A stretch of DNA of 64,000 nucleotides. Source: an uncultured Spirochaetaceae bacterium (GTDB lineage Bacteria > Spirochaetota > Spirochaetia > SZUA-6 > DRHE01). Location: positions 8,633-72,632 of the forward strand of contig CAZBDU010000013.1 in assembly GCA_964490725.1 (NCBI GenBank). The letters run 5' to 3'. The position numbers and the translations under genes are program-made. Below the pieces are notes generated by a model. It was not told the origin of the DNA. It did no database searches and saw only the letters and a program-made list of their open reading frames with translations. Positions 13,072-29,914 of this stretch are shown here, piece by piece (within the stretch, counting starts at the first letter, position 1; every line of letters begins with the position of its first letter).

Positions 13072-14121
13072 TCAGCCGGCCGTCCTCGCGTGGTGAGGGG
13101 GTCCCGACTCCTGGGCGTAGCGGACCTCCGCAAGCCTCCTCCTGGCGGCGAAGCTCTTCACCACCTCATCGGCCCCGACACCCACTAGGATGACGAAACC
13201 GACCACGGCGAACTCCAGGGTCGTGGCGATGCCCAGGATGTTGATGGCGTTGTACAGCACCCGCACGATTGCGGTCCCGATGATCACCCCCAGGATGTTC
13301 CCTTCCCCTCCCTTCAGACTGACCCCGCCGACTACGCAGCCGGCGATGGCGTACAGCTCGTACATGTTCCCGGCCGTGGAGGGCTGGACCGTGTTCAGGT
13401 CCAGGGAGAAAAGGATGCCGGCGAACCCGGCGCAGGTGCTGGAGATGACGTAGGCGATGATGGTCATGCGGTCGGTGTTGATGCCGCTGAAGCGCGCGGC
13501 CTTCTCGTTGCGGCCCAGCGCCAGGATGTACCGCCCGTAGACCGAGCGATTCAGGAACACCGCCAGGATGATGCCGATGGCGATCAGAATGAGAAAGGGC
13601 ATCGGAAAGGACCAGTCAACCAGAAACCGGGGCGCCTGCCCCTGGGGCCAGAACGCCGAAGGGATCCTGCCGTGGGCCAGGAACTTCAACCCGGCGAAGC
13701 CGTTGCCATAGCCCTGGGTCACGTCCTGCATGGAAAAGCGGGCCATCCCGCGGTAGATGAACAGCCCGCAGAGGGTCACCACGAAGGGCTGCATCTTGAT
13801 CTTGGTGACCAGCAGCCCGTGGACGATCCCCATCAGGACCGACAGTCCCAGGCAGAGGAGAATGACGGGAACCACCGGCCACCCGCGCATGCGGATGAAG
13901 TGTGCGGACAGGGCGCCCACCAAACCCACGATGGAACCGACGGAGAGATCGATGCCGCCGGTCATAATCACGAAGGCCTCCCCCAGGCTGAGCAGCCCGA
14001 ACAGCCCGGACCAGCGCATGATGTTCATCAGGTTGTACCCCCCGATGAAGCTGGGATCGATGAGCGAGGTGATCATCATGACCACGGCCAGCAGCACCGC
14101 AATTCCGGCTATTCTCTTCAT
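13072..14121 (-). CDS. CUT2-family (ribose-type) sugar ABC transporter permease
   Basis: 349 aa. RbsC-like: GLFGLLSLGEAFVIMTGGIDLSVGSIVGL.., ALGRNEKAARFSGINTD. Confidence 0.9.
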   Translation of the reverse strand: MKRIAGIAVLLAVVMMITSLIDPSFIGGYNLMNIMRWSGLFGLLSLGEAFVIMTGGIDLSVGSIVGLVGALSAHFIRMRGWPVVPVILLCLGLSVLMGIVHGLLVTKIKMQPFVVTLCGLFIYRGMARFSMQDVTQGYGNGFAGLKFLAHGRIPSAFWPQGQAPRFLVDWSFPMPFLILIAIGIILAVFLNRSVYGRYILALGRNEKAARFSGINTDRMTIIAYVISSTCAGFAGILFSLDLNTVQPSTAGNMYELYAIAGCVVGGVSLKGGEGNILGVIIGTAIVRVLYNAINILGIATTLEFAVVGFVILVGVGADEVVKSFAARRRLAEVRYAQESGPPHHARTAG

Positions 14122-14145
14122 TCCTTCGTCCCTTCGTCCCCCGGT

Positions 14146-15654
14146 CTACTTCCCCCCGGTGGCCAGGTTGACCACCGCTTCCTCGCTGAACTGCTCCTTG
14201 TGCAGCTCTCCGCTGATCGCACCCTCGTGCATCACCAGGATCCGATCCGCAATGCCCAGCACCTCCTGCATCTCGCTGGAGATCACCAGGTTGGCGACCC
14301 CCTCCGCCGCCAGGCGCTCCATCAGACGGTAGATTTCCTCCTTGGCGACGACGTCGATGCCCCGGGTCGGCTCGTCCAGCAGGAGCACCCTGGGATTCAG
14401 GGAAAGCCACTTGCCCAGCACCACCTTTTGCTGGTTGCCGCCCGAGAGGGACTCCACCAGCTGGTCGATGCTGCGCAGGCGTACGTCCAGCCTCTGCACC
14501 ATCTGCCTGGCCAGGTCTCGCACCTCATCGAAGCGGATCATCTTGAGTGTCTGATGGCGGCCGAGACCGGCGAGGGTGATGTTCGGTTCCACGGCCATCT
14601 CCACGATCAGCCCGTGGAGCTTCCGGTCTTCCGGCACCAGGATGATCCCGTGGCTTATGGCGTCCTGCGGGCCGGTGATGCGGACCGGCTCGCCGTCCAG
14701 GAGAACCGTACCCGAAAGAGGGCTCTCGATGCCGAAGAGGGCGTGGGCCAGCTCGGTCCTGCCGGCTCCGACCAGTCCCGCCAGAACCAGGATCTCTCCC
14801 GCATGGACGGCGAAGCTGATCGGAACCCCGGGATGCCGCGCAAGGACCAGGTCGCGCACCTCGAGAACCGGACGGCCGACGAACTCATGCTCCTTGTGGT
14901 AGAACTTCTCGATGTCCCGGCCCACCATCAGCTTCACCATCTTCTCGTGGCTTATCTCCTGCAGGCTCAGGTGGCCGGAGACACAACCGTCGCGAAGCAC
15001 GACCACCCTGTCCGCCACCTCCTTCACCTCGCCCAGGCGGTGGGAGATGTAGATGATGCTCACTCCCTGAGACCGCAACTCCTCGATGACCTTGAACAGC
15101 CTCTCCGCCTCCGAGCGGGAAAGGCTGCTGGTCGGCTCGTCGAGAATCAGGATCTTCGAGTTGATGGACAGGGCCTTGGCGATCTCCACCAGCTGCTGGC
15201 TGCCGATGGCCAGGTGCCGGACAAGCACCTTCGGAGAGCAGTGCATGTCGATCCGGCTGAGGATTCTCTCCGTGTCCTCGTAGATCTTCCTGCGGTCCAC
15301 AAGACGCAGGAGCCCTCTCTCCCGCGGCTCCCGCCCGAGGAACACGTTGGCGCCCACGTCCAGGTTGTCCGAAAGGTTAAGCTCCTGATGGACGAAGGCG
15401 ATCCCCAGGCTGGTCGCCACCTGCACCGAAGGGATGCGTACCTCCTGGCCGTCCAGAACGATTGTGCCGGCGTCCGGCTCGTACACTCCCCCCAGGATCT
15501 TGGCGAGGGTGCTCTTGCCCGCGCCGTTTTCCCCGATGATCGCCAGGATCTCGCCCCGGTGCAGCCGGAGGCTGACATTGTCCAGTGCTTTGACTCCGGG
15601 GAAGAACTTGGTGACGCCGCGCATCTCCAGCAGGCAGGACCTGCCTCGCTCCAT
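14146..15654 (-). CDS. Sugar ABC transporter ATP-binding protein with two fused NBDs (RbsA-like)
   Basis: Two Walker A motifs (GENGAGKST, GLVGAGRTE), Walker B motifs (ILILDEPT, VLLLDEPT) and signature LSGGNQQK. Start placed at the internal ATG (MERGRS..LEMRGVTKFFPGVKAL); the track ORF extends to 15768. Confidence 0.92.
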   Translation of the reverse strand: MERGRSCLLEMRGVTKFFPGVKALDNVSLRLHRGEILAIIGENGAGKSTLAKILGGVYEPDAGTIVLDGQEVRIPSVQVATSLGIAFVHQELNLSDNLDVGANVFLGREPRERGLLRLVDRRKIYEDTERILSRIDMHCSPKVLVRHLAIGSQQLVEIAKALSINSKILILDEPTSSLSRSEAERLFKVIEELRSQGVSIIYISHRLGEVKEVADRVVVLRDGCVSGHLSLQEISHEKMVKLMVGRDIEKFYHKEHEFVGRPVLEVRDLVLARHPGVPISFAVHAGEILVLAGLVGAGRTELAHALFGIESPLSGTVLLDGEPVRITGPQDAISHGIILVPEDRKLHGLIVEMAVEPNITLAGLGRHQTLKMIRFDEVRDLARQMVQRLDVRLRSIDQLVESLSGGNQQKVVLGKWLSLNPRVLLLDEPTRGIDVVAKEEIYRLMERLAAEGVANLVISSEMQEVLGIADRILVMHEGAISGELHKEQFSEEAVVNLATGGK

Positions 15655-15806
15655 CTCCCGTCCCTGACCCGCTTCCGTTTTCGCCACGCCGACCTCCACA
15701 GGTTGACCTTGATGCTCCACCAGACGGGTCCTCCCGGGACGCGAGCCTGGGGAGGCCCCCGAGCTCACCCCAGGCTCGACATACCCACTGCTTCCGGGAG
15801 GAACAG

Positions 15807-16859
15807 CTATTTTACCTCGAAGAACTCACCCACGGCCAGCTGCTTGTTCAGGGTCTCCATGAAAGCGTCGACCTTGTCCTTGGTGATGTAGCGGGCAGGA
15901 ACATCCACAAGCTTGTCCGCGGGGATGCCCGCATCCTGGCCGCTGATGATCTTGTACAGCAGCTCGACGCTGGTGCGGCCGTACTCGTAGGGGTTCTGCA
16001 CGATGGTGCCCGCCACGTAGCCATCCTTGATGGCCTGGAGGACGACCACCTCCTCGTCGAAGCCGATGATCTTCATGGTGCCCAGCTTGCCGGCATCCTG
16101 CACGGCGCTGATGATGGCCGGGGTGTTGTAGCTCCACAGGCCGATCATCAGGTCGAGGTCGGGGTACTTCACCAGGATGTCCTCGGCGTTCCCTTTGGCG
16201 CGGCTCTCGTCGCCGCCGTCGGTGCGGGTGTCCAGGATGGTCCACTGCCCGCAGTCAACCCTGCCCTGGGGGGTCATCTCTCCGGGATACTGGGCGGCGT
16301 AGGGCTTGCCCTGCAGCTCATCGATGATCCCCTGGCGGCGCTCCACGGCGTTCTGCGCGTCCAACCTGCCCACGAAGATCACGAGCTTGCCTCCGGCGGG
16401 CAGCTGTTCCTTGATCTTCTGCCCGGCCAGCCGACCGGCGGCATAGTTGCTCATCCCCACGTAGGCCCGCCGGTTGCTCTTGGGCGCGTCGCTGTCGAAC
16501 ATGACCACCGGTATCTTGGAGCCGATTTCATTCAGGAAGGGAGTCATGTTGTCCGGGTCGATGACGCTGATGGCCAGCCCGTCGATTCCCTTGGCCATCT
16601 GCGTCTCGATGAACCGCTTCTGCTCTTCCAGAGTGGCGCTGGGAGGCTTGTAGAAGTTCACCCTGACGCCGAACTCCTGCTCCGCCTTGAGGCAGCCGGC
16701 ATGAGCATAGGTCCAAAACGTGTACGGTCCGTTGGACACGTAGGCGATGTTGATCTGCTTCTGGGCCGCTGTCTCGGGTGTGCCCCCGGCCCACAGGGTG
16801 CCCATCCCCGCGAGCACCAGGAGGAGAAGTGTCCAAGAGAGGAACTTCCTCAGGTTCAT
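15807..16859 (-). CDS. Sugar ABC transporter periplasmic substrate-binding protein (RbsB-like)
   Basis: MNLRKFLSWTLLLLVLAGMGTLWAGG signal peptide. Periplasmic-binding-protein type I fold features. AAGGAGG SD 7 nt upstream of the ATG at 16859. Confidence 0.9.
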   Translation of the reverse strand: MNLRKFLSWTLLLLVLAGMGTLWAGGTPETAAQKQINIAYVSNGPYTFWTYAHAGCLKAEQEFGVRVNFYKPPSATLEEQKRFIETQMAKGIDGLAISVIDPDNMTPFLNEIGSKIPVVMFDSDAPKSNRRAYVGMSNYAAGRLAGQKIKEQLPAGGKLVIFVGRLDAQNAVERRQGIIDELQGKPYAAQYPGEMTPQGRVDCGQWTILDTRTDGGDESRAKGNAEDILVKYPDLDLMIGLWSYNTPAIISAVQDAGKLGTMKIIGFDEEVVVLQAIKDGYVAGTIVQNPYEYGRTSVELLYKIISGQDAGIPADKLVDVPARYITKDKVDAFMETLNKQLAVGEFFEVK

Positions 16860-16928
16860 GAGAGAACCTCCTTTGAGTCGATTGCGGGAAGACCACGCCG
16901 TGGCCCCGTTCTCCCGCTGTCCTTGGAG

Positions 16929-16944
16929 AGCAAGAATCATGCCA
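16929..16944 (-). promoter_or_regulatory. Sigma54 (-24/-12) promoter of the binding-protein/ATPase/permease operon
   Basis: The minus strand reads TGGCATGATTCTTGCT, against the consensus TGGCAC-N5-TTGCW. It lies about 70 nt upstream of the ATG at 16859, and a sigma54 activator is encoded divergently. Confidence 0.65.
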
Positions 16945-17009
16945 CAAGACGGAGGCATGACCCTGCAATCCCTTGAAGCGCAAACAGTTAAACCATGGCC
17001 CTGGCTTCC

Positions 17010-17037
17010 TTGACAGGGGAGCCCGCCCCTGTATAAT
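17010..17037 (+). promoter_or_regulatory. Consensus sigma70 promoter (TTGACA-16 nt-TATAAT) for the response-regulator/kinase operon
   Basis: Read directly: TTGACA at 17010-17015 and TATAAT at 17032-17037. A second TATAAT lies at 17063-17068. Confidence 0.55.
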
Positions 17038-17080: not shown

Positions 17081-18415
17081 GTGAAGCCACAAGTCCTGGT
17101 CGTCGACGACAAGATCAAGGTCTGCGAGAGCCTGGCCCAGAATTTCAGGCAGCTCGGGTACGAATGCCACGCGGCCACGAGCTCCGGCGAGGCGATCCAC
17201 ACTTTTCTGGACCACAAGATCAACACGGTGATCCTGGACATCAGGCTGGGCAATGACGACGGGATCGAGCTGCTGAAACAGCTGCAGAATCTCAACGGCA
17301 AGGTGCCGGTTATCATGATCACCGCTTACGGTACCATCGAGTCAGCGGTGGAATCCATCAAGCTCGGCGCCTTCGACTTTCTTCAGAAGCCAATCAACTT
17401 CGACAAGCTGGTGAAGGTGGTGGAGAATGCCATCAGGATGAATGTCCTGGAGGAGGAGAACCACAGGCTCAAGCGCAAGCTCTTCGATTTCTCCTCCAGG
17501 CTGGTCACGCAGAACAGGGAGATGATCGAGCTGTGCCGCAAGGCAAAGCAGCTGGCCGCCACAGAGCTGCCAATCTTGATCTGCGGGGAAAGCGGCACAG
17601 GGAAGGAGCTGCTGGCCGACTTCATCCATTCTCATTCCGCTCAGTCGTGCAACGAGATCATCAAGATCAATTGCTCCGCCTTCGCCGAATCCCTGCTGGA
17701 CAACGAGCTGTTCGGCCACGAGAAAGGGGCCTACACAGGGGCGGATTCTACCTTCCGGGGCGTGTTCGAGAGAGCGAACAACGGGACCCTCTTTCTGGAT
17801 GAGATCGGTGACATGCCCCTGCCCATCCAGAGCAAGATACTGCGCACTCTGCAGAACAAGGAGATTCGCAGGGTCGGCGGCAACAATACCATCAGGATCA
17901 GCGTTCGTTTCATAGCGGCCACAAACAAGAACCTCCAACAACTGATCGCAGAGGGAAGATTCCGGGACGACCTCTTTTACCGCCTGAACGCCGCCACCCT
18001 GACCATCCCTCCCCTGAGAGAGCGCAGGGAGGACATTCCGCTGCTAACCCGACACTTCCTGAACGACTTCCGGGCCCCGAGCTCGGACAGGCCGAAGACT
18101 CTCGCCAGAGAGGTTCTGGGGATTTTCCTGGATTGCGACTGGCCAGGGAACATCCGCGAGCTGAAGAACACTCTGCAGTACGCCGCCACCGTTTCGCTGA
18201 AGGACACCATTGACATCTGCGACCTGCCTCCCGGGTTCAACCACACCAGCAACGAAGGCGCGCCCCAGAATATCAGGGAGAAGATGGAGAGAGACCTGAT
18301 CGTGAGCATGCTCGCCAGGACCGGCTACAACAAGAAGCGGGCGGCGGAATTGCTCGGCATGAGCCGCAAGACGCTCTATAACAAGCTGGAAAGGTATGGC
18401 ATCCTCTGCCCGTGA
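17081..18415 (+). CDS. Sigma54-dependent response regulator (NtrC family: receiver + AAA+ + Fis-type HTH)
   Basis: VKPQVLVVDDK..DIRLG receiver domain. Walker A GESGTGKELLA. GAYTGA (GAFTGA-type sigma54 contact loop). C-terminal HTH KRAAELLGMSRKTLYNKL. GTG start chosen; the track ORF begins at 16973. Confidence 0.92.
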   Translation: MKPQVLVVDDKIKVCESLAQNFRQLGYECHAATSSGEAIHTFLDHKINTVILDIRLGNDDGIELLKQLQNLNGKVPVIMITAYGTIESAVESIKLGAFDFLQKPINFDKLVKVVENAIRMNVLEEENHRLKRKLFDFSSRLVTQNREMIELCRKAKQLAATELPILICGESGTGKELLADFIHSHSAQSCNEIIKINCSAFAESLLDNELFGHEKGAYTGADSTFRGVFERANNGTLFLDEIGDMPLPIQSKILRTLQNKEIRRVGGNNTIRISVRFIAATNKNLQQLIAEGRFRDDLFYRLNAATLTIPPLRERREDIPLLTRHFLNDFRAPSSDRPKTLAREVLGIFLDCDWPGNIRELKNTLQYAATVSLKDTIDICDLPPGFNHTSNEGAPQNIREKMERDLIVSMLARTGYNKKRAAELLGMSRKTLYNKLERYGILCP

Positions 18416-20252
18416 GGGCGGCAGCAACACCCTTCTCGAGCTCCAGAACGTCAATCTCTACTACGACACCCTCAAAGTCCTCAAGGATATCAACATCAGG
18501 ATCAACCGATCCGAGGTCCATGCCATCGTCGGGGAGCACGGGGCAGGCAAGACCTCCCTGTGCATGATCCTGAGCGGCTTCCTCAGGCCCTACTCGGGCA
18601 AGCTCATCCTGGAAGGGAAGACCTGCGATTCCCTGTCGCCCAGAAAGGCCCTCACCGCCGGCATCGAGCTCGTGACTCAGCACAATCCGGTGGTCGACAA
18701 CTTCAGCGTTGCGGAGAACCTTTATCTGGACAACCGCGGGGTCTCCAGCTATCCGTTCATCAACCGCAGAAAGTACCTGGAGATGGCGCAGGCCAGCCTC
18801 GAGGCGCACGGGTTCGCCATCCGTCCCGAGGCGGTGCTGCGAAACATGAAGCTCTCCGACCGGGTGCTGGTCGACATCCTGAAGCATCTGGTAAACCGGC
18901 CGCGGCTTCTGATCCTGGACGAGGCCCTCCAGAAGCTCACCGCGCCAAACTGCGCGAAGATGATCCAGCACCTGAAGGAGCTGAAAAAGGCGGGCATGTC
19001 GATCATCTTCGTCACCCACCGCATCGACGACATCTACAACTTCGCCGACAAGGTGTCCATTCTCAGAAACGGCGAGATCCTGATCACCGATTCCGTCAGC
19101 AACATCGACAAGATCAATCTCATCAAGCTCGCCTACACCCAGATCAGCAGCGACGAGGAGCTGGAGAACGCCAACCAGGAGTTCTACCACCTGCTCAAGT
19201 ACAACGAGGCCGTCCTCAAACAACTGCCTGTGAACCTGGTGGTTGTGGACCGCAACAACAGCATCAAGCTGATCAACGAGTACGCCAAGAAGTACTTCGA
19301 GATCGAGGAGACCAACTACCTGAACACGCCGGTCCGCGAGCTGTTTTCTTTCGAGAATCGGGCGGCCTTCGATTTGCTGCAGGGCGGCCTGTCCAGCAGG
19401 AACAGCGAGACCTTCTACGGCATCACCCTGAACAGGAACGGAGTGGAGTCGATCACCAACATCAAGACCCATCCGATCTACGACGAGTCTTTCCGCATCG
19501 GCTACTACATCATTGTCGAAGACATTACGGAGCGCGAAAAGCTGCGCGAGCAGGTGATCCTGTCGGAGAAGCTTGCCTCCGTCGGGCTGCTGTCAGCCGG
19601 TGTGGCCCATGAGATCAACAACCCGCTGGAGATTATCTACAACTATGTCCGCTACCTGAAGTTCCACACCGCGAGCCAGGAGATCCGTGCCACGGTGAAC
19701 AGCCTGGAGGAGGAGCTCAAGTCCATCTCGCAGATCGTCAGCAACCTGATCTCCTTCTCTGACAGCAGCAAGAACCTGGTCGAGCAGGTGGATGTCAACG
19801 AGCTGATCGCGAGTATCCTCAACCTGGTCGAGTACAATGCCAGGTACCGGCGCATCTTCATCCACTTCCATAGGAAAGCCGATCCGCTTCCCCTCCGGAT
19901 CAACAAGACCGAGATGAAGCAGGTCATCCTCAACCTGATCAAGAACAGCTTCGAGGCCATGCCCTCGGGCGGGCACCTGACGGTCGCCACGGGCAGGCGC
20001 AAGCAGGGCGAAACGCGGCTCGTGGAGATCGTCTTCCAGGACACCGGCTGCGGGATCGGAGACCGCAAGGTGAACGACATCTTCCTGCCTTTCTACTCCA
20101 CAAAGAAGGACGGGCACGGCAACCTGGGTCTGGGTCTCTCGGTGAGCTACGGGATCATCAGAAAATACCACGGTACGATCACCGTCCGCAATCGCGACGG
20201 CGCGGGTTGCGAGTTCACCATCCGGGTTCCCCAGGCTCAGCTCGGCCGCTGA
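18396..20252 (+). CDS. Soluble sensor histidine kinase with N-terminal ABC-transporter NBD (NBD-PAS-HisKA-HATPase_c)
   Basis: 618 aa. aa ~13-247 are RbsA-N-half-like: Walker A GEHGAGKTS, Q-loop VTQH, degenerate signature LSDRVLV, Walker B LLILDEA, H-loop VTHR. A PAS-like region spans aa ~262-375. H-box GVAHEINNPL has its His codon at 19608-19610. N/G boxes are LIKNSFEAM, DTGCGI and GLGLSVS. No transmembrane segment. Overlaps the response-regulator stop by 20 nt. Confidence 0.85.
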   Translation: MASSAREGGSNTLLELQNVNLYYDTLKVLKDINIRINRSEVHAIVGEHGAGKTSLCMILSGFLRPYSGKLILEGKTCDSLSPRKALTAGIELVTQHNPVVDNFSVAENLYLDNRGVSSYPFINRRKYLEMAQASLEAHGFAIRPEAVLRNMKLSDRVLVDILKHLVNRPRLLILDEALQKLTAPNCAKMIQHLKELKKAGMSIIFVTHRIDDIYNFADKVSILRNGEILITDSVSNIDKINLIKLAYTQISSDEELENANQEFYHLLKYNEAVLKQLPVNLVVVDRNNSIKLINEYAKKYFEIEETNYLNTPVRELFSFENRAAFDLLQGGLSSRNSETFYGITLNRNGVESITNIKTHPIYDESFRIGYYIIVEDITEREKLREQVILSEKLASVGLLSAGVAHEINNPLEIIYNYVRYLKFHTASQEIRATVNSLEEELKSISQIVSNLISFSDSSKNLVEQVDVNELIASILNLVEYNARYRRIFIHFHRKADPLPLRINKTEMKQVILNLIKNSFEAMPSGGHLTVATGRRKQGETRLVEIVFQDTGCGIGDRKVNDIFLPFYSTKKDGHGNLGLGLSVSYGIIRKYHGTITVRNRDGAGCEFTIRVPQAQLGR

Positions 20253-21334
20253 GGCCCCTGCGGGATCGCGGAGGCCCGAGAGGCAGGCGGCCTTTTCCCG
20301 CGGGTGCGGCCCGCTCCCGTTCCGTGCTCGCCGATCGCTTCCGCCAGCCGTCGCCTCGCGGCGGCGGACTTGATCAGCTCCTCGGCGCTGGCCCCGAACA
20401 GGATGACCGATCCGACAATGGTGTACTCCAGGGTCGTGGAGATGCCCAGGATGTTGATCGCGTTGTACAGCACCCGCACGATCGCCGTGCCGATAATCAC
20501 CCCGGGCACCGAGCCTTCTCCGCCCCGCAGGCTCGCGCCTCCCACCACGCAGCCGGCGATCGCGTACAGCTCATACATGTTTCCGGCCGTGGAGGGCTGC
20601 ACCGTGTTGAGGTCCAGCGAAAAGAGGACCCCTGCCAGGCACGCGCAGGTTGCAGAAATGACGTAGGCAGCGATCTTGATACGATCCGTGTCCACCCCGC
20701 TGAAACGCACGGCCCTCTCGTTGCTGCCGATGGCCAGGATGCAGCGTCCGTACACTGAGCGCTCCAGGAAAAGCCAGAGGATGGCGCCCGCGAACAGCAG
20801 GATGAGGAAGGGCATCGGCAGCGACCATTCGGCCACCAGCAGCGGGGCGTTGCCCGCCGGCCAGAAGGCGGAGGGAAGGCGGCCGTTGGCCAGGAACTTG
20901 AGCCCCTGGAAGCCGCTTCCGTACCCCTGGGTGACGTCTCGCAGCGCGAAGCGCGCCAGTCCGCGGTAGATGAACAGCCCGCACAGGGTCACCACAAAGG
21001 GCTGCACCTTGACCTTGGTGACCAGCACTCCGTGCAGCAGCCCCATCAGGACCGCCAGGGTAAGACAGATGAGCAGGGCCGCGGCGATGGGCAGCCCGCG
21101 TACGGTGATGAAGTTGGCCGAGAGCCCGCCGATGAGCCCCACGATGGAGCCGACCGACAGGTCTATGCCCCCGGTCATGATGACAAAGGACACCCCCAGA
21201 CTGAGCAGGCCGAACAGGCCCGTCCAGCGCAGGATGTTCTTGACGTTGTAGGGGTTGATGAAGTCCGGGTCGACGATGGTTGTGAGCAGCATGGCGGCCA
21301 CCAGGACAACGCCAATCCCCGCCGCTCTTCTCAA
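20237..21334 (-). CDS. Second CUT2-family sugar ABC permease, paralog of 13072-14121, with no adjacent ATPase or binding protein
   Basis: Collinear with the first permease (GLFGLLSLGVSFVIMTGGIDLSVGSIVGL.., AIGSNERAVRFSGVDTD). TTG start 7 nt after GGAGGG; the track ORF extends to 21409. Its 3' end overlaps the kinase 3' end by 16 nt (convergent). Confidence 0.9.
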   Translation of the reverse strand: MRRAAGIGVVLVAAMLLTTIVDPDFINPYNVKNILRWTGLFGLLSLGVSFVIMTGGIDLSVGSIVGLIGGLSANFITVRGLPIAAALLICLTLAVLMGLLHGVLVTKVKVQPFVVTLCGLFIYRGLARFALRDVTQGYGSGFQGLKFLANGRLPSAFWPAGNAPLLVAEWSLPMPFLILLFAGAILWLFLERSVYGRCILAIGSNERAVRFSGVDTDRIKIAAYVISATCACLAGVLFSLDLNTVQPSTAGNMYELYAIAGCVVGGASLRGGEGSVPGVIIGTAIVRVLYNAINILGISTTLEYTIVGSVILFGASAEELIKSAAARRRLAEAIGEHGTGAGRTRGKRPPASRASAIPQGPQRPS

Positions 21335-21419: not shown

Positions 21420-22049
21420 TCAGGCGAGGCGTTTCTTCACTGCCTCCTTCAGGCGGCTGTCCCGGATCGACTCCGGGTCCACCAACGCCTTCACCCCCGG
21501 GTATTCCAGGGCCGGGCGGACCACCTCCTCGGGGAGGGTCTCGATAATCTCGGCCAGGCTGCGGTGGGTCAGCCGGGAGACCCGTTCCAGGATGAGGCGC
21601 GCCTCGCGCTGCGGCTCCCTGCGGTGCTCCGGATAACCGGCGCCTCGCTCCACACTGAAGAGCCGATCGAAGATGAAGCGCAGGTTCACATCCCCGGCCC
21701 AGCCGTAGCCGCGGTTGAGGGCCAGGGAAACACAGTTGCCGCCGTTGATCTGCATGAACAGCCAGGCGTCGAGGGGGTCCAGCACGAGCCCGCAGAACAC
21801 CCCCGGATACTGCATGATCGAGCTCAGGAAGCCCTGGCCCGTGCCGCAGCCACCGACGACGAAGTCCGCCCGCTTGAGCTCCAGCAGCACCGCTGCGATC
21901 AGGCCGGTGTGGACGTAGAGCAGCTCGGGCTTCGCTCCCCGCTCCCTCATACCGGCGTTGATGACCTGGTGGCCGCGTCCCTCGAGAGCGGCCAGGATGT
22001 CCGCGTTCTTGTCCGCGGCGCTGGTCTCGCTGACCACTGCTATCCTCAC
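21420..22049 (-). CDS. RpiB/LacA/LacB family sugar-phosphate isomerase (long ~210-aa form)
   Basis: VRIAVVSETSAADKNADIL..DFVVGGCGTGQGFLSSIMQYPGV.. GTG start after GGGAGGG. It forms the C-terminal part of track ORF 21420-23642. Confidence 0.8.
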   Translation of the reverse strand: MRIAVVSETSAADKNADILAALEGRGHQVINAGMRERGAKPELLYVHTGLIAAVLLELKRADFVVGGCGTGQGFLSSIMQYPGVFCGLVLDPLDAWLFMQINGGNCVSLALNRGYGWAGDVNLRFIFDRLFSVERGAGYPEHRREPQREARLILERVSRLTHRSLAEIIETLPEEVVRPALEYPGVKALVDPESIRDSRLKEAVKKRLA

Positions 22050-23624
22050 GGCACCCTCCCGGCCGGGGTCTGCGGCCGGCCTGTCCCGCGGGTCTCGACC
22101 CGGCCCGTCCCGTTCACCTCCCTGGCCCAGCCCAGGCAGCGCTGCACTGCCTTGTTCCATCCGCGGTAGAGGGCTTGCCGGCGCTCCTCGCTCATGGCGG
22201 GCTCGAAGCGGCGGTCCAGCCGCCAGTGGGCCGCCACTTCCTCCCTGCTGCCCCAGAAGCCGACACCGAGGCCCGCCAGGTAGGCGGCGCCACGGGCTGC
22301 CATCTCCGTCACCGAGGGCCGCTCCACCGGGATTCCCAGCACGTCCGCCTGGAATTGCATCAGGAAGTCGCTGCGGCTCGCACCTCCGTCCACTCTCAGG
22401 GAGTCCGCCTGCCTGCCCGAATCGGCGCTCATCGCGTCCAGCACGTCCCGGGTCTGGTAGGCCATGGATTCCAGGCTCGCCCGGGCAATGTGCTCCCGGC
22501 CTGTCCCGCGGGTGATGCCGACGATAAGGCCCCGGGCGTACATGTCCCAGTAGGGGGCGCAGAGGCCGGTGAAGGCGGGCACCACATACACCCCTCCGGT
22601 GTCCTCCGCCTGAGCGGCCAGCCGGGTGCAGCCCTCCGCGTCCTCGACGATCCTCAGGCCGTCCCGCAGCCACTGCACCGCCGCCCCTCCGATGAACACC
22701 ACCCCTTCCAGAGCATACTCGGTCTTTCCATTGACGTGCCAGCCGAGATCCGTGGTCAGGCCGTGTGCGGACAGCATGGGGGTCTGGCCAATGTTCATCA
22801 TCAGCGCCAGGGCAGTGCCGTAGGTGTTCTTCGCCATCCCCGGCCTGAAGCAGTTCTGCCCGAAGGTGGCGGCGTGCTGGTCCCCGGCCGCGCCGGCTAC
22901 CGGGATCTCCGCTCCGAAGAAGACCATCCGGTCGGTGGTGGCCAGCACGCCGCTGGAGGAAAGGGGGGTGGGCAGGATCTCCTCGGGTATCTCCAGAGCC
23001 GCCAGGAGCTCCGCGTCCCACTGCAGCGTGTGGATGTTCAGCAGCATCGTCCGCGAGGCGTTGGAGAAGTCGGTCACGTGCGCCCTCTGGCCGCTCAGGT
23101 TCCAGATGAGCCAGGAATCGATGGTCCCCATGCAGATCTTGCCCCGGGCGATCCTCTCTCTCACTTCCGGCACGTTGTCCAGGATCCACCGGATCTTGGT
23201 TGCCGAGAAGTAGGCGTCGATCAGAAGGCCGGTCCTCTCCCGCACCAGCGGCTCCAGCCCCTTGGCCTTGAGCTCGTCGCACAGCGCCGCGGTGCGACGG
23301 CACTGCCAGACGATGGCGTTGTACACCGGCCGGCCGCTGTCCCTGTCCCAGAGGATCGTGGTTTCCCGCTGATTGGTGATGCCGATCCCGGCGATCGCCT
23401 CGGCCTCCAGGCGGCCCTTCTCCAGCACCTCCCGGGTGCAGTCCATCACCGTTTCCCAGTACTCCCGGGGGTCCTGCTCCACCCAGCCCGGCTGCGGGTA
23501 GATCTGCCGGATCTCCCGGTAGGCCGAGGAGTGGATGTCCCCGTTGTGCCGGAAGAGGATCACCCGGGTCCCGGTGGTTCCCTGGTCGATGGCCATGATG
23601 AATCGCTTGTCCACGGCGTCCCCC
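22046..23624 (-). CDS. glpK: Glycerol kinase (FGGY family)
   Basis: FIMAIDQGTTGTRVILF, GWVEQDPREYW, GITNQRETTILWD, GAAGDQHAATFGQ, RVDGGASRSDFLMQFQADVLG. GTG start at 23624. About 25 aa of low-complexity C-terminal tail. Confidence 0.9.
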
Positions 23625-23634: not shown

Positions 23635-24615
23635 TTAGCCACGCTCCAGGAGCGTCTCCCGCAGCAGGTCGTAGAGACCGGTGATGTCTTCTCGCTCCTG
23701 GTAGCGGCGGATGGCCTCGCCGTCCAGTCTGTCGGCGAGCCTCTCCATGCTTTGCAGCATACGGATCGAAAGCCCCACGGCCTCGGCCGGATCCTCGCGG
23801 AAAGGGAACTGATCCATGATGATGTAGCCCTCGTAGCTGGACTGCTTCAGGTACCAGAGGTACTCCACGGTGCGCCAGAGGTTGACGGTGCCGGCGATCA
23901 GGTCGTCGTCGAACTCCCCGTAGGCGTCGTTGCCATGCACGTTGAAGAGCCGGCCCGCCCGGTCGAGCATGCACAGCGACTCGGCGGGGTTCTCCCGAGA
24001 CAGGAGGGCGTGGCCGAAATCGAGGGTGATGCCGAAGTTCTCCGCGCCCACGTCGTGAGCCAGAACGAGGGCTTTCCCGACGTTGGCTACCATCATGAAC
24101 ATGCGGGGCTCTTTCAGCTTGTACTCGTAGGAGAAGCGCAAGTCGGGAGCGTACGCGGCGATCTCCCTGATGGCCTCCACGGTGGAGCTCCACATCGCGT
24201 TGTAGTCCCCCTGGAAGCAGTAGTCGTGTCCGTCCTGGCCCGGCCACATGTCGATGAGCCGGAAGCCCATCTCCCGGGCCGCATCGGCTCCCTTCTTCAC
24301 GGTGTCCACCGCCTTCCGGTAGGTCTTTCTGTCCCTGCTGGTGAAGGCGCCGTACTTGTACCGCGGGGCGAACAGGGCCATGTTCATGGCCTGCATCTCA
24401 AGCCCGCTGTCGCGGATGATCGCGGCCACCTCCCTGACCTGCAGCCCCTCGAAGTCACTCGGGTAGTGGATCTGGATCGCCTCCAGCCCCTTGACACGGG
24501 CTGCCGTTCGCACCTGCTCGCGGAAGCTCTGCGCAGGCCGATAGCCCCCCGGGATGAACCGGTCGGCCGTAAACCCGATGGTCCACAGTCCCGCTCCGAA
24601 CCTGAGCCTTTTCAT
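23635..24615 (-). CDS. Sugar phosphate isomerase/epimerase, xylose-isomerase-like TIM barrel
   Basis: 326 aa. AP_endonuc_2-type pattern (..IQIHYP.., WPGQDGHDY, EYKLKEPR, ITLDFGHALL, NVHGNDAYGEFDDDL). GAAGGAGG SD. Confidence 0.8.
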   Translation of the reverse strand: MKRLRFGAGLWTIGFTADRFIPGGYRPAQSFREQVRTAARVKGLEAIQIHYPSDFEGLQVREVAAIIRDSGLEMQAMNMALFAPRYKYGAFTSRDRKTYRKAVDTVKKGADAAREMGFRLIDMWPGQDGHDYCFQGDYNAMWSSTVEAIREIAAYAPDLRFSYEYKLKEPRMFMMVANVGKALVLAHDVGAENFGITLDFGHALLSRENPAESLCMLDRAGRLFNVHGNDAYGEFDDDLIAGTVNLWRTVEYLWYLKQSSYEGYIIMDQFPFREDPAEAVGLSIRMLQSMERLADRLDGEAIRRYQEREDITGLYDLLRETLLERG

Positions 24616-24688
24616 GTTGCGCCCTCCTTCTTCTCCACCTTCTGCACGCGGAACCGGCCGCAGGGCTCCCCGCGGCGGCCCCCAGGGG

Positions 24689-24995: not shown

Positions 24996-25274
24996 TCAGC
25001 CGCCGGCCACCATCTGCAGGAGCATCACCTCCTGATCTTCCCGCAACGCGGTGCGGAGCTCCTTCACCGGACGGCCGTCCACGATGATGATCACCGAGGC
25101 CGCTGGCTTCCTACCCTGCCGATCCCAGAACTGCCCGGGGACGGCGGCCGCCCAGCGCTCGTCGATCAGTTTCATCAGGCTCTGAAGCGTGGAGCCTTCC
25201 GGCAGCTCCATCCGGTGGGTCTGCTCGCCGAGAAAGCCCGCCAGCGCCCCGAGGGCGCGCAGCCTGATCTTCAT
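24996..25274 (-). CDS. MoaD/ThiS-family ubiquitin-like small protein (C-terminal GG)
   Basis: 92 aa, ending ..VMLLQMVAGG. Lies immediately downstream of the AOR gene. Confidence 0.75.
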   Translation of the reverse strand: MKIRLRALGALAGFLGEQTHRMELPEGSTLQSLMKLIDERWAAAVPGQFWDRQGRKPAASVIIIVDGRPVKELRTALREDQEVMLLQMVAGG

Positions 25275-25283: not shown

Positions 25284-27143
25284 TCACTGCGCGTAAAGAT
25301 CGGCGGCGGCATCCTCGAGGCCCAGCTCCAGCAGGACCGCCCGGCTCGGCCTGCCGTCCGCCTCCCAGCGGCGCAGCCGGTAGTACCGTTCCAGCTGGGC
25401 CGCCAGGTCCGGCACCTTGCCCGCCGCACCCCCTTCCTTCAGGGGGGTCATGGCCCGCACCGGCATGGTGTCATCCTCCCTCCGTATCCCGCAGCGCCAG
25501 TTGTACGCTCGATGCAGAGCGTTGATCCGGTCTCCGATGCACAGCAGGTCCTCTGGCCTCAGCGCGGAGCCGGTGGCCGCCTTCAGCAGGGCGCAGAAAT
25601 CCGAGGGCTTCAGCAGCACGGTGGCGAAATAGCACAGCACGAGAGAGTCCAGGACGTGGGCCCAGTTTTGGGCGAAGCGAGTCATCTCCGCCTTTCCGGT
25701 GTCGCTCAACCGCGTGTATGTGCCCGTGAACCCCCACTCCGGGATCGGGTTCTCCCCCTCTTCGTAGAGGTCCGTCATACCATGCAGATGGCAGCCTCCC
25801 CGGGAAGCGGTGGCGTAGTTGGAGGCCCACGCGAACCCGGCCCGCGCGTCGTGCATGGGAAGCTCCAGGCCCTTGACCTGCACCGCCCACTCCTTCGAGC
25901 CTCCCCCCAGCTTCTGCGCCAGCCTCCTGGTGCCCAGTCCCAGGAGCCTTCCCGCCCCTTCGCCTCGGCCGATCTTTTCGATCATACGGATCAACGCCTC
26001 CGCGCTGCCCCAGCGCAGCTCGATCCCATCCAGATCCTGGCTGGCGAGCAACCCCTTCTCGACGCATTCCATGGCAAAGGCCAGGGTGGAGCCGGTGCTG
26101 ATCGCATCCAGGCCGTAGAGGTTGCAGAGATGGTTGGCGTAGCAGACCGCCCGCACGTCCAGCACCATGCAGAGGGTTCCCAGCGCCGCCGTGCTCTCAT
26201 ACTCCGGGCCGGGAGCGTCCATCCTGTAGGGACCCTCCTCGATGCGGGTCCAGCGAGCGCAGCCGATGGTACAGCGGTGGCAGGCGGAGTGTCTCCTGGG
26301 CATGAGCTCGTAGATTCTCCGCCCTCCAATGGCCGTGCACACCGCTTCGGTGGAGCCCACCGACCAGTTCTTCACCGGGATGTCGCTGATCGCCCAGCGG
26401 CTGTCCAGCACGTCCGCCGTGCCGTACTTCCTGAGCGCCTCCAGGTCAGGGTCCGTGGCGTTGCGCCGGTTGATCGCCCGGGCCAGCTCCGTGAAGCCCT
26501 CCGGGTCGGCCAGCTGCACCTCCGCCGAGCCCCGCACCGCGATGGCCTTCAGCCGCTTGGCGCCCATGACCGCCCCGCCGCCGCCCCGGGCCGCCGCCCG
26601 GGCGTCGTCGTTGAGGATGGCACTGTACAGCACCCCCTTCTCCCCGGCCGGGCCGATCACCGCCACCCTGACCCCGCGCTGGCCTATCTCTTGCCTGATA
26701 TCCTCCTGGGCCGCGAAGGTGTCCTTACCCCAGTGTTGTGAGGCAGCGCGAATCTCCGCCTTCCCCTCCTCGACGTACAGATACACCGGCTCCGACGCGG
26801 CCCCTTCCACGACCAGCCCGTCGTAACCTGCCCTGCGGAGCGCCGTTCCCCAGTGTCCGCCAGAGCTGGAGTCGCAGAGCATCTCGGTCAGGGGGGCCTT
26901 GAAAACCACCTGGTAGCGCCCAGAGGTGCCCAGGGAGGTGCCCGTGACCGGTCCGGTCATGAACAGGAGCCTGTTCTCCGGCCCCAGCGGATCGGCCTCC
27001 GGAGGGATCTCGTCATAGGCCAGCCGGATTCCCATCCCGGAGCCCCCAATGTAGTTCCTGGCGTGCTCCGGTGAGACAGGCTCCTCGGCGATCCTCCCGG
27101 AGCCGAGATTCACCCGCAGCAGCTTTCCCATGTAGCCCTTCAT
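25284..27143 (-). CDS. Tungsten-type aldehyde:ferredoxin oxidoreductase (AOR family)
   Basis: 619 aa. MGKLLRVNLGSG..YIGGSGMGIRL..FMTGPVTGT N-terminus. 4Fe-4S Cys motif CHRCTIGC. AAGGAGG SD. Confidence 0.92.
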   Translation of the reverse strand: MKGYMGKLLRVNLGSGRIAEEPVSPEHARNYIGGSGMGIRLAYDEIPPEADPLGPENRLLFMTGPVTGTSLGTSGRYQVVFKAPLTEMLCDSSSGGHWGTALRRAGYDGLVVEGAASEPVYLYVEEGKAEIRAASQHWGKDTFAAQEDIRQEIGQRGVRVAVIGPAGEKGVLYSAILNDDARAAARGGGGAVMGAKRLKAIAVRGSAEVQLADPEGFTELARAINRRNATDPDLEALRKYGTADVLDSRWAISDIPVKNWSVGSTEAVCTAIGGRRIYELMPRRHSACHRCTIGCARWTRIEEGPYRMDAPGPEYESTAALGTLCMVLDVRAVCYANHLCNLYGLDAISTGSTLAFAMECVEKGLLASQDLDGIELRWGSAEALIRMIEKIGRGEGAGRLLGLGTRRLAQKLGGGSKEWAVQVKGLELPMHDARAGFAWASNYATASRGGCHLHGMTDLYEEGENPIPEWGFTGTYTRLSDTGKAEMTRFAQNWAHVLDSLVLCYFATVLLKPSDFCALLKAATGSALRPEDLLCIGDRINALHRAYNWRCGIRREDDTMPVRAMTPLKEGGAAGKVPDLAAQLERYYRLRRWEADGRPSRAVLLELGLEDAAADLYAQ

Positions 27144-28141
27144 CTCACCCCTCCTTTGCGCTTCTTGTCTCTCGCGAGAACGGTCCGGCGGCCTTCATCT
27201 GCCCCTCTCCTGTGCACTTCTTTTTTCTCAAGGGCCTCCCGGGCGGCCCGGGCGATATCTTGCGGACCCAGGCCGCAGAAGTCCCACAGGCTCTCCGGAT
27301 CAGGGCCGGTACAGACGAAGGTATCCCGGATACCTACCGGAACCGCCGGCGTGGGCCTCTCCCGGCTCAGCGCCTCGGCTACGGCGCCGTAGAGCCCCCC
27401 GACGATCGAGTGCTCCTCCACTGTGACCAACGCTCCCGTCTCTGCGGCAGCGCGGAGGACCAGCTCTCTGTCCAGGGGCTTGAGGGTGTGGATCTCCAGC
27501 ACTCGGGCGGAGATCCCCTCCCGCTCGAGCAGCTCGGCAGCCTCCAGGCTGCGGTGCACGGCAATTCCGGTAGCCACCAGGGTGAGGTCTCTGCCCTCCC
27601 TGAGCGGGCGCCCTTTGCCGATCTCCACGGCGCTATTCCGGCCAGGAACCGTCGGAACATCCGCCCGGCTGATGCGCAGGTACACCGGGCCGGGGTACTC
27701 CGCAACGGCTGGAATCAACTCCTTCAGCTCCGCGCCGTCGGTGGCGGTGACCACCGTCATGTTGGGCATGGCCCTCATGACGGCCAGATCGAACACCGAG
27801 TGATGGGTGGGACCGTCTTTGAAATCGGACACCCCCGCATAACCGGCCAGCAGCTTGACGTTGGCGCGGTTGTAGGCCACGCAGGTACGGATTTGCTCCA
27901 ACCCCCGGTAGCAAAGCATCGCAGCGAAGGCGCTGACGAAAGGGATCTTGCCGGCCAGGGCCATCCCCACCGCCGTGTCGATCATCCCGGGCTCGGCGAT
28001 CCCGACATTGAAGAACCGCTCCGGGTGCGCCTCGCGGAACAGGATGGTCATGGTGGAGTTGGAGGCATCCGCATCCAGAACCACTACGTTGCCGTTCAGG
28101 TGTCCGTAGTCCGCCAGGGCCCGGCCTAGCTCCTTCCTCAT
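27140..28141 (-). CDS. Transketolase, C-terminal (pyrimidine-binding) subunit
   Basis: MRKELGRALADYG..FFNVGIAEPGMIDTAVGMALAGKIPFVSAFA..GPTHHS.. ATGA overlap with the N-terminal subunit gene. Confidence 0.9.
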   Translation of the reverse strand: MRKELGRALADYGHLNGNVVVLDADASNSTMTILFREAHPERFFNVGIAEPGMIDTAVGMALAGKIPFVSAFAAMLCYRGLEQIRTCVAYNRANVKLLAGYAGVSDFKDGPTHHSVFDLAVMRAMPNMTVVTATDGAELKELIPAVAEYPGPVYLRISRADVPTVPGRNSAVEIGKGRPLREGRDLTLVATGIAVHRSLEAAELLEREGISARVLEIHTLKPLDRELVLRAAAETGALVTVEEHSIVGGLYGAVAEALSRERPTPAVPVGIRDTFVCTGPDPESLWDFCGLGPQDIARAAREALEKKEVHRRGADEGRRTVLARDKKRKGGVR

Positions 28142-28980
28142 GACCTGCCCGCTCCCGAGAGCTCCCGTCTGGCTTGCTCCATCTGCTCTCCCGTCGGCGC
28201 CGCCCCGTGCCAGGCATGGGCGTTCTCCATGAAGCTCACCCCCTTTCCCTTCACCGTGTGGGCTACGATCATCGCTGGCCGGTCGTGGATTGTCTCCGCT
28301 TCGTCGAGAGCCTCCAGGATATGGCGCATGTTGTGACCATCGATCTCGATGACCCCCAAGTTGAAGGCCTTCCACTTGTCCACGAGGGGCTCCAGAGGCA
28401 TGATCTCGTGCACGAAGCCGTCCAGCTGTACGTCGTTGTAGTCCAGGATCAGGGTCAGGTTGCTGAGATGGTACTTGGCCGCGGTCATCGCCCCCTCCCA
28501 GATGACCCCCGCCTGGCACTCCCCGTCTCCCAGCAGCACATAGGTGCGGAAGCGCCGGCCGTCGAGCCTGGCCGCCAGAGCCAGCCCGGCGCCCACGTTG
28601 ATGCCGTGTCCCAGGACTCCGGTGGTCATGTCCACGCCCGGGGTCTTGAGGCGCTCCGGATGTCCCTGCAGGTGGCAGTCCAGCTTTCCCCAGTTTCCCA
28701 AGTCGCTCTCCGGAAAGAACCCCCTCGCGGCAAGAGCCGCATAGAGAATGGCGCTGGCGTGTCCCTTGCTCAGGATGAAACGGTCCCGGCCGGGATCCTC
28801 CGGCAGGGCAGGATCGACGCGCAGCTTGTGGAAGTACAGGGCCGTGACGATGTCCGCTGCCGACAGGGAGCCGCCGGGATGACCGGCTCCTCGCCGCCAG
28901 ATCATCTCCAGCGCGGTGATGCGCAACCGCCGGGCCGTGTCCTCCAGACAGGCGATGAGCCTTTCTCCGTGGTGTGGCAT
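28138..28980 (-). CDS. Transketolase, N-terminal (TPP-binding) subunit
   Basis: 280 aa. GAGHPGGSLSAADIVTALYF..RDRFILSKGHA..LGDGECQAGVIWE. Confidence 0.9.
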   Translation of the reverse strand: MPHHGERLIACLEDTARRLRITALEMIWRRGAGHPGGSLSAADIVTALYFHKLRVDPALPEDPGRDRFILSKGHASAILYAALAARGFFPESDLGNWGKLDCHLQGHPERLKTPGVDMTTGVLGHGINVGAGLALAARLDGRRFRTYVLLGDGECQAGVIWEGAMTAAKYHLSNLTLILDYNDVQLDGFVHEIMPLEPLVDKWKAFNLGVIEIDGHNMRHILEALDEAETIHDRPAMIVAHTVKGKGVSFMENAHAWHGAAPTGEQMEQARRELSGAGRS

Positions 28981-28994
28981 GACTGGCCTCAGAC

Positions 28995-29010
28995 AGCAAG
29001 AAATGTGCCA
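28995..29010 (-). promoter_or_regulatory. Sigma54 (-24/-12) promoter of the transketolase-AOR-glpK-permease operon
   Basis: The minus strand reads TGGCACATTTCTTGCT, a perfect TGGCAC-N5-TTGC, and is 13/16 identical to the element at 16929-16944. The -12 GC is only ~16 nt from the ATG at 28980. Confidence 0.6.
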
Positions 29011-29095
29011 AATCCTGGCGCTCCCGTGCTGTAAACCCTTATGCTAAAGGGAGTTGTCAGCCGAAAATGGAAGACGGTTACCGCCGCCGGGTGAA

Positions 29096-29143
29096 TGTAT
29101 AACTCTTATACAAACCAGCCTGGCTGTGTACAATACCGCTACA
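29096..29143. promoter_or_regulatory. Two TGT-N11-ACA dyads (TGTATAACTCTTATACA, TGTACAATACCGCTACA), candidate UAS sites
   Basis: Dyads at 29096-29112 (perfect 7-3-7 palindrome) and 29127-29143, centres 31 bp apart, starting 86 nt upstream of the -24 T. This is the same geometry as at 17030-17077. Confidence 0.5.
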
Positions 29144-29636
29144 GTCAGGTGCGCGGAAGACGCACTTTGTTGAATCGAGGCGGGATTGGACGTGCCCCTG
29201 CGGAGACGGTCCCGACGGATGAGCAGATCGACGGCCAGGGCGCCTACGACACGGGTCATGCTTTGCTACCGGCTCGTATTCCCCATCGGCCCCTTCAGCC
29301 ATAACCTCAAGCTTGGCTTCTCCTCATGTTGCTAAAGCAGGCAACGCCTGCAGGAACGCCTGGTTCCGATCGCTCTGTTTCAGGCCGGGCCGGGCTCGAG
29401 CTGGAAACGGCAGCACCGCCCGGTCCAGAGAGTCTCCTCCACCCGAAAGCCTCTGGCCGGCGAAAGAGCTCCGGCCAGCGCCCGGAAAGGATTGATGCAG
29501 TACAGCTCGCAGGGCCGACCTTGGGTCTTGCGGAGGATTCCACGGTCTTGGAGGCGAGGCTTCCAGAGCACCAGGTGCCGGCCCCTTCGACTGTTCACCG
29601 ATCTGTGTCGACCGCACCTGCGGAAAGTCGCCATTG

Positions 29637-29665
29637 TTGACTGGATTGAAAACTTGACCTAATAT
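29637..29665 (+). promoter_or_regulatory. Sigma70 promoter TTGACT-17 nt-TAATAT for the toxin-antitoxin operon
   Basis: Read directly. The -10 ends 6 nt before the GTG start at 29672, which implies a leaderless or very short-leader mRNA. Confidence 0.5.
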
Positions 29666-29682
29666 GGTCTTGTGAAGACCAT
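29664..29682. promoter_or_regulatory. Perfect palindrome ATGGTCTT-GTG-AAGACCAT spanning the -10 region and start codon; candidate antitoxin operator
   Basis: 8-3-8 inverted repeat read directly. The central GTG is the antitoxin start codon. Confidence 0.45.
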
Positions 29683-29914
29683 AAACATCTCCGAATTCAA
29701 GAAGCACATGAGCGCGGAGCTCAGAAGAGTCAGGAACGGCGAGCGACTACTGATTTTCGACCGGGACAAACCGGTGGCCGAAGTCGTCCCATACCAGGAG
29801 TCTTCGAAGCGGCTCGTGGTCCGGCCGCCCCGGGGCCCCACAGCCCTTCCTGCCGTGAACGTCAAGACGGACGTTGACCCGCTCGGATTTCTGCTTGAGG
29901 ATCGGAAACGCTGA
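29672..29914 (+). CDS. Phd/YefM-family type II antitoxin
   Basis: 80 aa. MKTINISEFKKHMSAELRRVRNGERLLIFDRDKPVAEVVP. The stop overlaps the toxin ATG (TGATG). Confidence 0.8.
   Translation: MKTINISEFKKHMSAELRRVRNGERLLIFDRDKPVAEVVPYQESSKRLVVRPPRGPTALPAVNVKTDVDPLGFLLEDRKR

Follow-up and report, generated by a model that had tools for sequence, protein, structure and literature searches.

The control region described here occupies positions 28995–29143 of a 64-kb stretch of DNA (hereafter the window) from an uncultured Spirochaetaceae bacterium, and lies directly upstream of a nine-gene catabolic operon which runs on the minus strand from 28980 down to 20237 and begins with the gene for a transketolase subunit. 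It contains a predicted sigma-54 (−24/−12) promoter, preceded by a pair of 17-bp dyads which are putative sites for an activator of the NtrC type. A corresponding promoter and dyad pair precede an uptake operon elsewhere in the window, next to genes for an NtrC-family activator and a histidine kinase. The relevant features are:

28995..29010, minus strand: predicted sigma-54 (−24/−12) promoter of the catabolic operon, reading TGGCACATTTCTTGCT.
29096..29112: promoter-proximal putative activator site, a perfect palindrome TGTATAA-CTC-TTATACA (TGTATAACTCTTATACA); centre about 94 nt upstream of the −24 T, near −120.
29127..29143: distal putative activator site, TGTACAATACCGCTACA (promoter strand TGTAGCGGTATTGTACA); centre 31 bp from that of the proximal site, near −151.
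29031..29056, minus strand: mid-spacer box CAACTCCCTTTAGCATAAGGGTTTAC, candidate site for a bending protein (IHF/HU-like) or intrinsic bend.
28982..28986, minus strand: predicted transcription start (A at 28984, 12 nt downstream of the −12 C).
16929..16944, minus strand: predicted sigma-54 promoter of the uptake operon, reading TGGCATGATTCTTGCT.
17030–17046 and 17061–17077: matching dyad pair at the uptake locus, TGTA-N9-TACA.
13072..16862, minus strand: uptake operon, comprising a Peripla_BP_4 binding protein (15807–16862), a double ABC ATPase (14146–15768) and the permease perm1 (13072–14121).
17010..17037, plus strand: predicted sigma-70 promoter of the activator–kinase operon, TTGACA-N16-TATAAT (12/12).
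17081..18415, plus strand: NtrC-family response regulator/sigma-54 activator (Response_reg, Sigma54_activat, HTH_8).
18396..20252, plus strand: histidine kinase with an N-terminal ABC ATPase domain (ABC_tran, PAS, HisKA, HATPase_c).

The promoter element at 29010–28995 fits the pattern TGGCAC-N5-TTGCW, with exactly 10 bp from its GG to its GC doublet; it is the positions of these doublets relative to the transcription start which give the −24/−12 class its name. A preliminary description of this DNA had called it a perfect −24/−12 element, identical at 13 of 16 positions to that at 16929–16944, and direct reading of TGGCACATTTCTTGCT against TGGCATGATTCTTGCT gives the same count (13/16). These two elements are the only perfect matches to the pattern in the window. 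The geometry upstream of them is also shared, as had been claimed: at both loci the coordinates give 31 bp between the dyad centres and 86 nt between the −24 T and the nearer dyad, and direct reading shows 29096–29112 to be a perfect 7-3-7 palindrome.

Since the window is 65% G+C, such A/T-rich palindromes are conspicuous. The pattern TGTA-N9-TACA is expected 0.06 times in 64 kb and is found four times, all four matches being these dyads; TGTAYAA-N6-TACA, with up to one mismatch, finds the same four sites (0.03 expected), and when up to three mismatches are allowed, three of the four (all except 29127–29143) and nothing else match TGTATAA-N3-TTATACA. All four accompany the two perfect promoter matches, with identical spacing. 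The arrangement corresponds to that of an NtrC-type enhancer, in which two or more inverted repeats of ~17 bp share one helical face some 80–150 bp upstream of the promoter; a pair of 17-bp dyads separated by three turns is the layout classically seen with NtrC.

The spacers between dyads and promoter bear on how the two loci came to resemble each other. They had been described as unrelated, which is mostly so (32% ungapped identity), although both contain a weak box, AACT-N12-AAGGGnTTnCAG, in the same register (29031–29056 and 16965–16990), and to this extent the description does not hold. At 32% identity the two loci are not the product of a recent duplication. That the resemblance is nonetheless a duplication remnant, or chance, and that 28995–29010 is not a working promoter, could be argued from the unusual nearness of the element to a start codon and from the promoter pattern itself, which with one mismatch allowed is expected about three times per window. 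Against this stand the dissimilar spacers, the excess of dyads over expectation, all of them at two perfect promoters with identical spacing, and the retention, in many relatives, of the same arrangement ahead of catabolic operons that begin with different genes (see below); we regard this explanation as very improbable. The earlier view, that the geometry has been selected rather than duplicated, is instead favoured both by the spacer divergence and by the recurrence of the spacing in the relatives.

An alignment of 20 modules (dyad pair plus promoter) reveals conserved A/T-rich columns, TAAyTCnTTAT....tAA..AaTTa, midway between enhancer and promoter, and the window spacers carry a G+C-shifted version of this box in the same register. 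It is located at about −45 to −70, the region where DNA-bending proteins act at many sigma-54 promoters. By-eye comparison with WATCAANNNNTTR on both strands gave no match to an IHF site; lacking a match to the Escherichia coli IHF consensus, the box is only a candidate for a bend or for the site of an architectural protein.

For comparison we used contigs carrying full-length homologues of the kinase (67–71% identical; L081, L083, L084/85, L086 and L087/88); the closest homologues are annotated as Spirochaetes bacterium GWB1_66_5 and Spirochaetaceae bacterium. These five independent loci have a conserved order, with permease, ATPase and binding protein genes, divergent activator and kinase genes, and a convergent catabolic operon. 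In all five, TGGCAY-N5-TTGC and two dyads 31 bp apart, the nearer 85–89 nt upstream, precede the binding-protein operon. The module is also present before the catabolic operon wherever the 5′ end of that operon lies within the fetched DNA (L083, L084, L086, L087/88), and this under different first genes: a split transketolase (L087), an AraA-like gene (L083) or YjbQ (L084, L086). Taking all loci together, an equivalent promoter precedes the catabolic operon in L083, L084, L086, L087, L092, L107, L125, L128 and L138-141.

Across 23 distinct modules the distance between nearer dyad and promoter is 85 nt in three, 86 in 11, 87 in seven, and 88 and 89 in one each; the search patterns fixed the 31-bp spacing of the dyads but required neither the promoter nor its distance. 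The proximal site has the consensus TGTATAAnnATTATACA in these modules. In the distal site it is the promoter-side half, ATT(A/G)TACA (ATTATACA), which is kept, the far half being degenerate in all relatives. A scan of metagenomes for the dyad pair, without a promoter in the pattern, returned 47 matches, of which 15 have a complete upstream TGT-N11-ACA dyad; a sigma-54 promoter lies at 85–87 nt in all 15, versus none of the other 32. These 32 promoterless matches are mostly on A/T-rich contigs, several having 53–57% G+C. Three loci (L095, L103 and L116) have the same dyad pair and sigma-54 promoter. In L095 and L103 all that follows is part of the transketolase C subunit (..LKALIPMLAEHCGPVHMRISQAEVP..), as if the first genes had decayed or been rearranged while the control region stayed in place, and in L116 there is no open reading frame (ORF) within 130 nt of the promoter.

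The product of 17081–18415, which adjoins the uptake locus, is the sole sigma-54 activator encoded in the window. It possesses every domain that this role requires (receiver, AAA+ sigma-54 interaction domain and HTH_8). Its Walker A motif (GESGTGK) is present, the receiver aspartate is Asp53 (assigned by eye), and its recognition helix, SRKTLYNKL, is conserved. Scores against the NCBIfam models for AtoC (425 bits, cut-off 714), NtrC (392, cut-off 558.6) and ZraR (363, cut-off 760) all fall below the cut-offs, placing the protein in the broad NtrC family but in no named orthologue group. In all relatives the activator gene is linked to the module and adjoins its kinase gene, and the recognition helix is conserved wherever the dyad motif is. 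More distant loci extend the comparison. In L089 and L090, whose activators are 58–59% identical to that of the window, one combined operon has the same layout, with the motif shifted to CGTATAAnnnTTATACG and the promoter to TGGTACGATTGTTGCT. A scan of a genome collection with the kinase alignment yielded mainly unrelated kinases (75 of 80 loci), the only full-length relatives being L001-L004 and L025; L001 (a KSB3 bacterium) and L003 have, judged from ORF positions only, a permease, an ATPase and a third ORF on one strand and a divergent activator and kinase, and carry related TGTAAC/TTACA repeats.

The dyads might instead be operators of another repressor or activator encoded elsewhere, the neighbouring activator acting through other sites or on other genes. 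A/T-rich palindromes of the TGTATAAT type could suit many helix-turn-helix proteins, and the window shows only part of the genome, and hence of its possible activators. However, the dyads occur only with sigma-54 promoters, at the enhancer-typical distance of 85–89 nt, and in the layout familiar from NtrC; they are always linked to the activator gene, one of them overlapping that gene's promoter; and in the distant clade their motif shifts together with the activator. Operators of a different protein therefore seem improbable to us. The conservation of module and geometry, with the motif shifting alongside the activator, is strong evidence that the dyads are the sites of this activator and that their geometry is under selection.

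On sequence grounds, then, 28995–29143 is very probably an NtrC-type enhancer with its −24/−12 promoter, belonging to a regulon shared with the uptake operon. The earlier proposal, that one activator–kinase pair co-regulates uptake and catabolism, is supported by the same module being found at both operons across the relatives, and would imply that uptake and catabolism are switched on together. In the mechanism we envisage, sigma-54 RNA polymerase would sit on the −24/−12 element as a closed complex, and the 17081–18415 regulator would bind as dimers at both 17-bp dyads, three helical turns apart. Phosphorylation by the 18396–20252 kinase would then lead the regulator to assemble into its active ring, the intervening DNA would loop, possibly aided by a bend at the mid-spacer box, and ATP hydrolysis by the regulator would open the promoter. 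The same regulator would act on the module of the uptake operon and there, in addition, probably repress the sigma-70 promoter from which it is itself expressed. The catabolic transcript would begin about 4 nt before the transketolase ATG, and the first gene would be translated from an essentially leaderless mRNA.

Several observations weigh against this reading. With one mismatch allowed, the promoter pattern has three matches in the window versus 3.06 expected, which is not significant. A search of the window for an RpoN box found none, and sigma-54 in this genome is assumed, although the sigma-54 interaction domain of the activator indirectly implies an rpoN gene. The sigma-54 contact loop of the activator (17726; residues ~216–221) reads GAYTGA and not the canonical GAFTGA, a conservative Phe-to-Tyr change. 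The module counts partly reflect the search patterns with which the loci were found, and the mid-spacer box, as described, has no match to an IHF site. The start codons of relatives and a GAGG before the transketolase ATG, considered next, belong to the same side.

The −12 C is at 28996, 16 nt from the ATG of the transketolase gene (28980), as had been noted, and the geometry of −24/−12 promoters relative to this C places the transcription start at about 28984. The predicted leader is thus 4 nt, and the GAGG at 28990–28987 is upstream of the start, in agreement with the 4–5 nt leader lacking this GAGG given in the preliminary description. The promoter 16-mer and the start codon, 14 nt apart in the window, are 11 nt apart in L087/88 and 12 nt apart both in L128/L138-140 (Spirochaetes bacterium GWB1_66_5) and in L141. 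Tight spacing is thus found in all four distinct modules which are followed by transketolase, with predicted leaders of 1–4 nt (1–2 nt in the relatives); modules heading other genes have leaders of 28–70 nt with clear ribosome-binding sites.

We consider the ATG at 28980 secure, because an identical 280-residue product is present in a public collection, homologues of this subunit are almost all 277–292 residues long, homologues led by a Shine-Dalgarno sequence (L142, L143) begin at the same aligned residue, and eight of the 10 differences between L087 and L128 in codons 5–26 are synonymous third-position changes (our own count). In L141 the public annotation opens the gene with an ATG 6 nt beyond the sigma-54 promoter, a position which would precede the predicted start of transcription; a GTG two codons further on aligns with the starts in L128 and L138, and the annotated start is probably two codons too long.

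It is conceivable that the module is functional but that the transketolase subunit is translated mainly from a longer transcript, made from an upstream promoter and using the GAGG at 28990–28987, while the sigma-54 mRNA mainly serves the downstream genes or weakly translates the first. The GAGG lies 6 nt before the ATG, where it is useful only to a longer transcript, and its retention may point to a further start upstream. Read-through is conceivable in L141 and L138-140, where the end of a co-directional gene lies ~170–230 nt upstream. A GUG start is predicted in the relatives (three of the four leaderless-type loci), and on leaderless mRNA E. coli uses this codon inefficiently (PMC3616915). 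On the other side, a search of the minus strand at 28980–29800 found no sigma-70-like promoter, and the ~530 bp upstream of the catabolic-locus dyads contain no ORF with family support and no supported co-directional gene. The aligned start codon is not preceded by a Shine-Dalgarno sequence in L087, L128 or L141, and a spacing of 11–14 nt in four distinct loci argues for selection. Predominant use of a longer transcript is, in our view, rather unlikely. That the catabolic operon has a leaderless transcript, in a conserved layout, is what the promoter and start-codon positions moderately favour. The literature searched contained no report of a sigma-54-driven leaderless mRNA, which is absence of evidence only.

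The uptake-locus dyads also suggest how the activator's own expression may be controlled. The −10 element of the predicted sigma-70 promoter lies inside the proximal dyad at 17030–17046, and its −35 TTGAC is kept in the relatives at loci of the uptake type only; the distal dyad covers the AGGA ribosome-binding site of the activator gene, ending 3 nt before the GTG at 17081. With the −10 within one dyad and the ribosome-binding site under the other, it is likely, from these positions, that the activator negatively autoregulates through the uptake-locus dyads. We rejected TGTATAAT as an extended −10 element: its TG abuts TATAAT without the 1-nt gap, and the promoter search reports no TG element.

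In the leader of the binding-protein mRNA there is a hairpin or inverted repeat, GGCCAC-GGC-GTGGTC, at ~16891–16905 (minus strand). Relatives have a repeat GGTAATCAC-N4-GTGATTACC at a conserved place, ~25–45 nt after the sigma-54 promoter, and differences among the loci look compensatory, as with GGCAGTCAC/GTGATTGCC in L122; the repeat is absent in L114 and reduced in L087. An Rfam scan of the whole window returned no RNA family.

The kinase is distinguished by its N-terminal domain, which is most like the first nucleotide-binding domain of CUT2 ATPases (YtfR, LsrA, AraG, RbsA). Walker A, Q-loop, Walker B and H-loop are conserved, and a conserved LSDR stands in place of the LSGGQ signature. 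The family is large, nearly all of the top 120 search matches sharing the architecture, and the gene adjoins a CUT2 transporter and an activator wherever the genomic context was examined. No PDB chain spans both halves of the kinase, and a literature search for a fusion of an ABC domain to a kinase found no description of one; a search for this regulon in spirochaetes likewise found none. Speculatively, the transporter itself could be the sensor. If so, the ABC domain of the kinase dimer could dock on perm1 or on a second permease, perm2, encoded in the catabolic operon, replacing the true ATPase or alongside it, and the transporter loaded with its binding protein would be the receptor which sets the phosphorylation of the activator. 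The joint reading, with a kinase which senses through its ABC domain and a promoter placed to give a leaderless mRNA for the first gene, is tentative, and we hold it to be doubtful as a whole.

Eight genes of the catabolic operon are tabulated, all on the minus strand:

28138..28980: transketolase N-terminal subunit, first gene (ATG at 28980; Pfam Transketolase_N, E-value 2e-52).
27140..28141: transketolase C-terminal subunit (Pfam Transket_pyr and Transketolase_C).
25284..27143: aldehyde:ferredoxin oxidoreductase (AOR; Pfam AFOR_N and AFOR_C).
24996..25274: small ThiS/MoaD-like protein (Pfam ThiS, E-value 4.5e-6).
23635..24615: xylose-isomerase-like TIM-barrel protein (Pfam AP_endonuc_2).
22046..23614: FGGY kinase, by score a glycerol kinase GlpK (GTG start at 23614; NCBIfam GlpK 750 bits, cut-off 498).
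21420..22049: RpiB/LacAB-like isomerase (Pfam LacAB_rpiB; NF006753).
20237..21334: perm2, second CUT2 permease and last gene of the operon (Pfam BPD_transp_2).

The names transketolase, AOR and glpK, previously given to genes of this operon, are confirmed by Pfam and NCBIfam. The gene for perm2 is convergent with that of the kinase and overlaps its end. Perm2 is 71% identical to perm1 by BLASTP (68% in a multiple alignment), and the two form separate orthologous clades across the relatives; the duplication is therefore old, with both copies retained. A second transporter permease within the catabolic operon provides a functional reason for the co-regulation of uptake and catabolism. A substrate such as D-apiose (through an apulose-4-phosphate transketolase) or erythritol, suggested by the split transketolase, FGGY kinase, TIM-barrel isomerase and RpiB-like protein, was not retained, as the literature gave nothing usable and NCBIfam identifies the FGGY kinase as GlpK.

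A ThiS-like gene follows the AOR gene in L084 and L086 too. Between the ThiS-like and TIM-barrel genes there is a gap of 380 nt, which contains a remnant of the N-terminus of a zinc alcohol dehydrogenase (LIVRVKACGVCGSD...GHQ; 24760–24858, minus strand), which matches an intact gene at the equivalent position in L084 (single-subject E-value 7.5e-4). A 102-codon ORF at 24612–24920 has no family match and overlaps this remnant in another frame; it is probably spurious. Divergent from the catabolic operon, a Phd/YefM antitoxin gene (plus strand) begins at 29672 and is followed by a PIN-like ORF without a Pfam match (29672–30330).

The analysis gives an uncharacterised two-component/sigma-54 system a binding motif, TGTATAAnnATTATACA, together with a fixed geometry and a regulon of two operons. 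The system is widespread in uncultured bacteria, its close homologues being annotated as metagenome-assembled genomes of Spirochaetota and its more distant ones as KSB3. The promoter fragments, the mutable sites and the expected co-induction are all defined, making the system directly testable.

The closest parallel is NtrC at glnAp2 of enteric bacteria, where two 17-bp dyads about three turns apart likewise lie more than 100 bp upstream of a −24/−12 promoter. NtrC has the same combination of receiver, AAA+ and Fis-type helix-turn-helix domains and is phosphorylated by a partner kinase, and its sites also repress the sigma-70 promoters glnAp1 and glnL, the putative counterpart here being the activator's own promoter at 17010–17037. 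The systems differ in the half-site (TGTATAA/TTATACA here, TGCACC/GGTGCA for NtrC), in the genes controlled (carbon catabolism as opposed to nitrogen control), in the contact loop (GAYTGA as opposed to GAFTGA) and in the ABC domain of the kinase. AtoS/AtoC, the acetoacetate system of E. coli, is the best-scoring named family for both proteins, far below the cut-offs (238 bits against 646 for the kinase with AtoS); it too is a two-component system with sigma-54-dependent activation of a catabolic operon through paired upstream repeats, but its target genes are others, and AtoS, which is a membrane kinase, lacks an ABC domain. In ZraS/ZraR (zraP-zraSR) and DctB/DctD (dctA), as here, the activator gene is divergent from an adjoining sigma-54 target with the repeats in between, and the kinase core resembles ZraS (PDB 9jfj); unlike in the ZraR and DctD systems, the activator operon is apparently driven by sigma-70 and auto-repressed, and a second, unlinked operon has the identical module.

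Leaderless mRNAs are found, for example, in Actinobacteria, Deinococcus and archaea. The predicted catabolic transcript resembles them in its very short leader and in having no Shine-Dalgarno sequence within the transcript, and differs in that the promoter is predicted to depend on sigma-54 and that the relatives would use GUG. In Sinorhizobium meliloti 171 leaderless cases are recorded (PMC3616915), and according to a work in the reference list of that paper a start codon near the 5′ end favours ribosome binding. Set beside these systems, the regulatory element itself is unremarkable; more unusual are the leaderless layout, which is conserved, and the ABC domain of the kinase, and a near-leaderless sigma-54 transcript and a kinase fused to an ABC ATPase could interest specialists more than the promoter.

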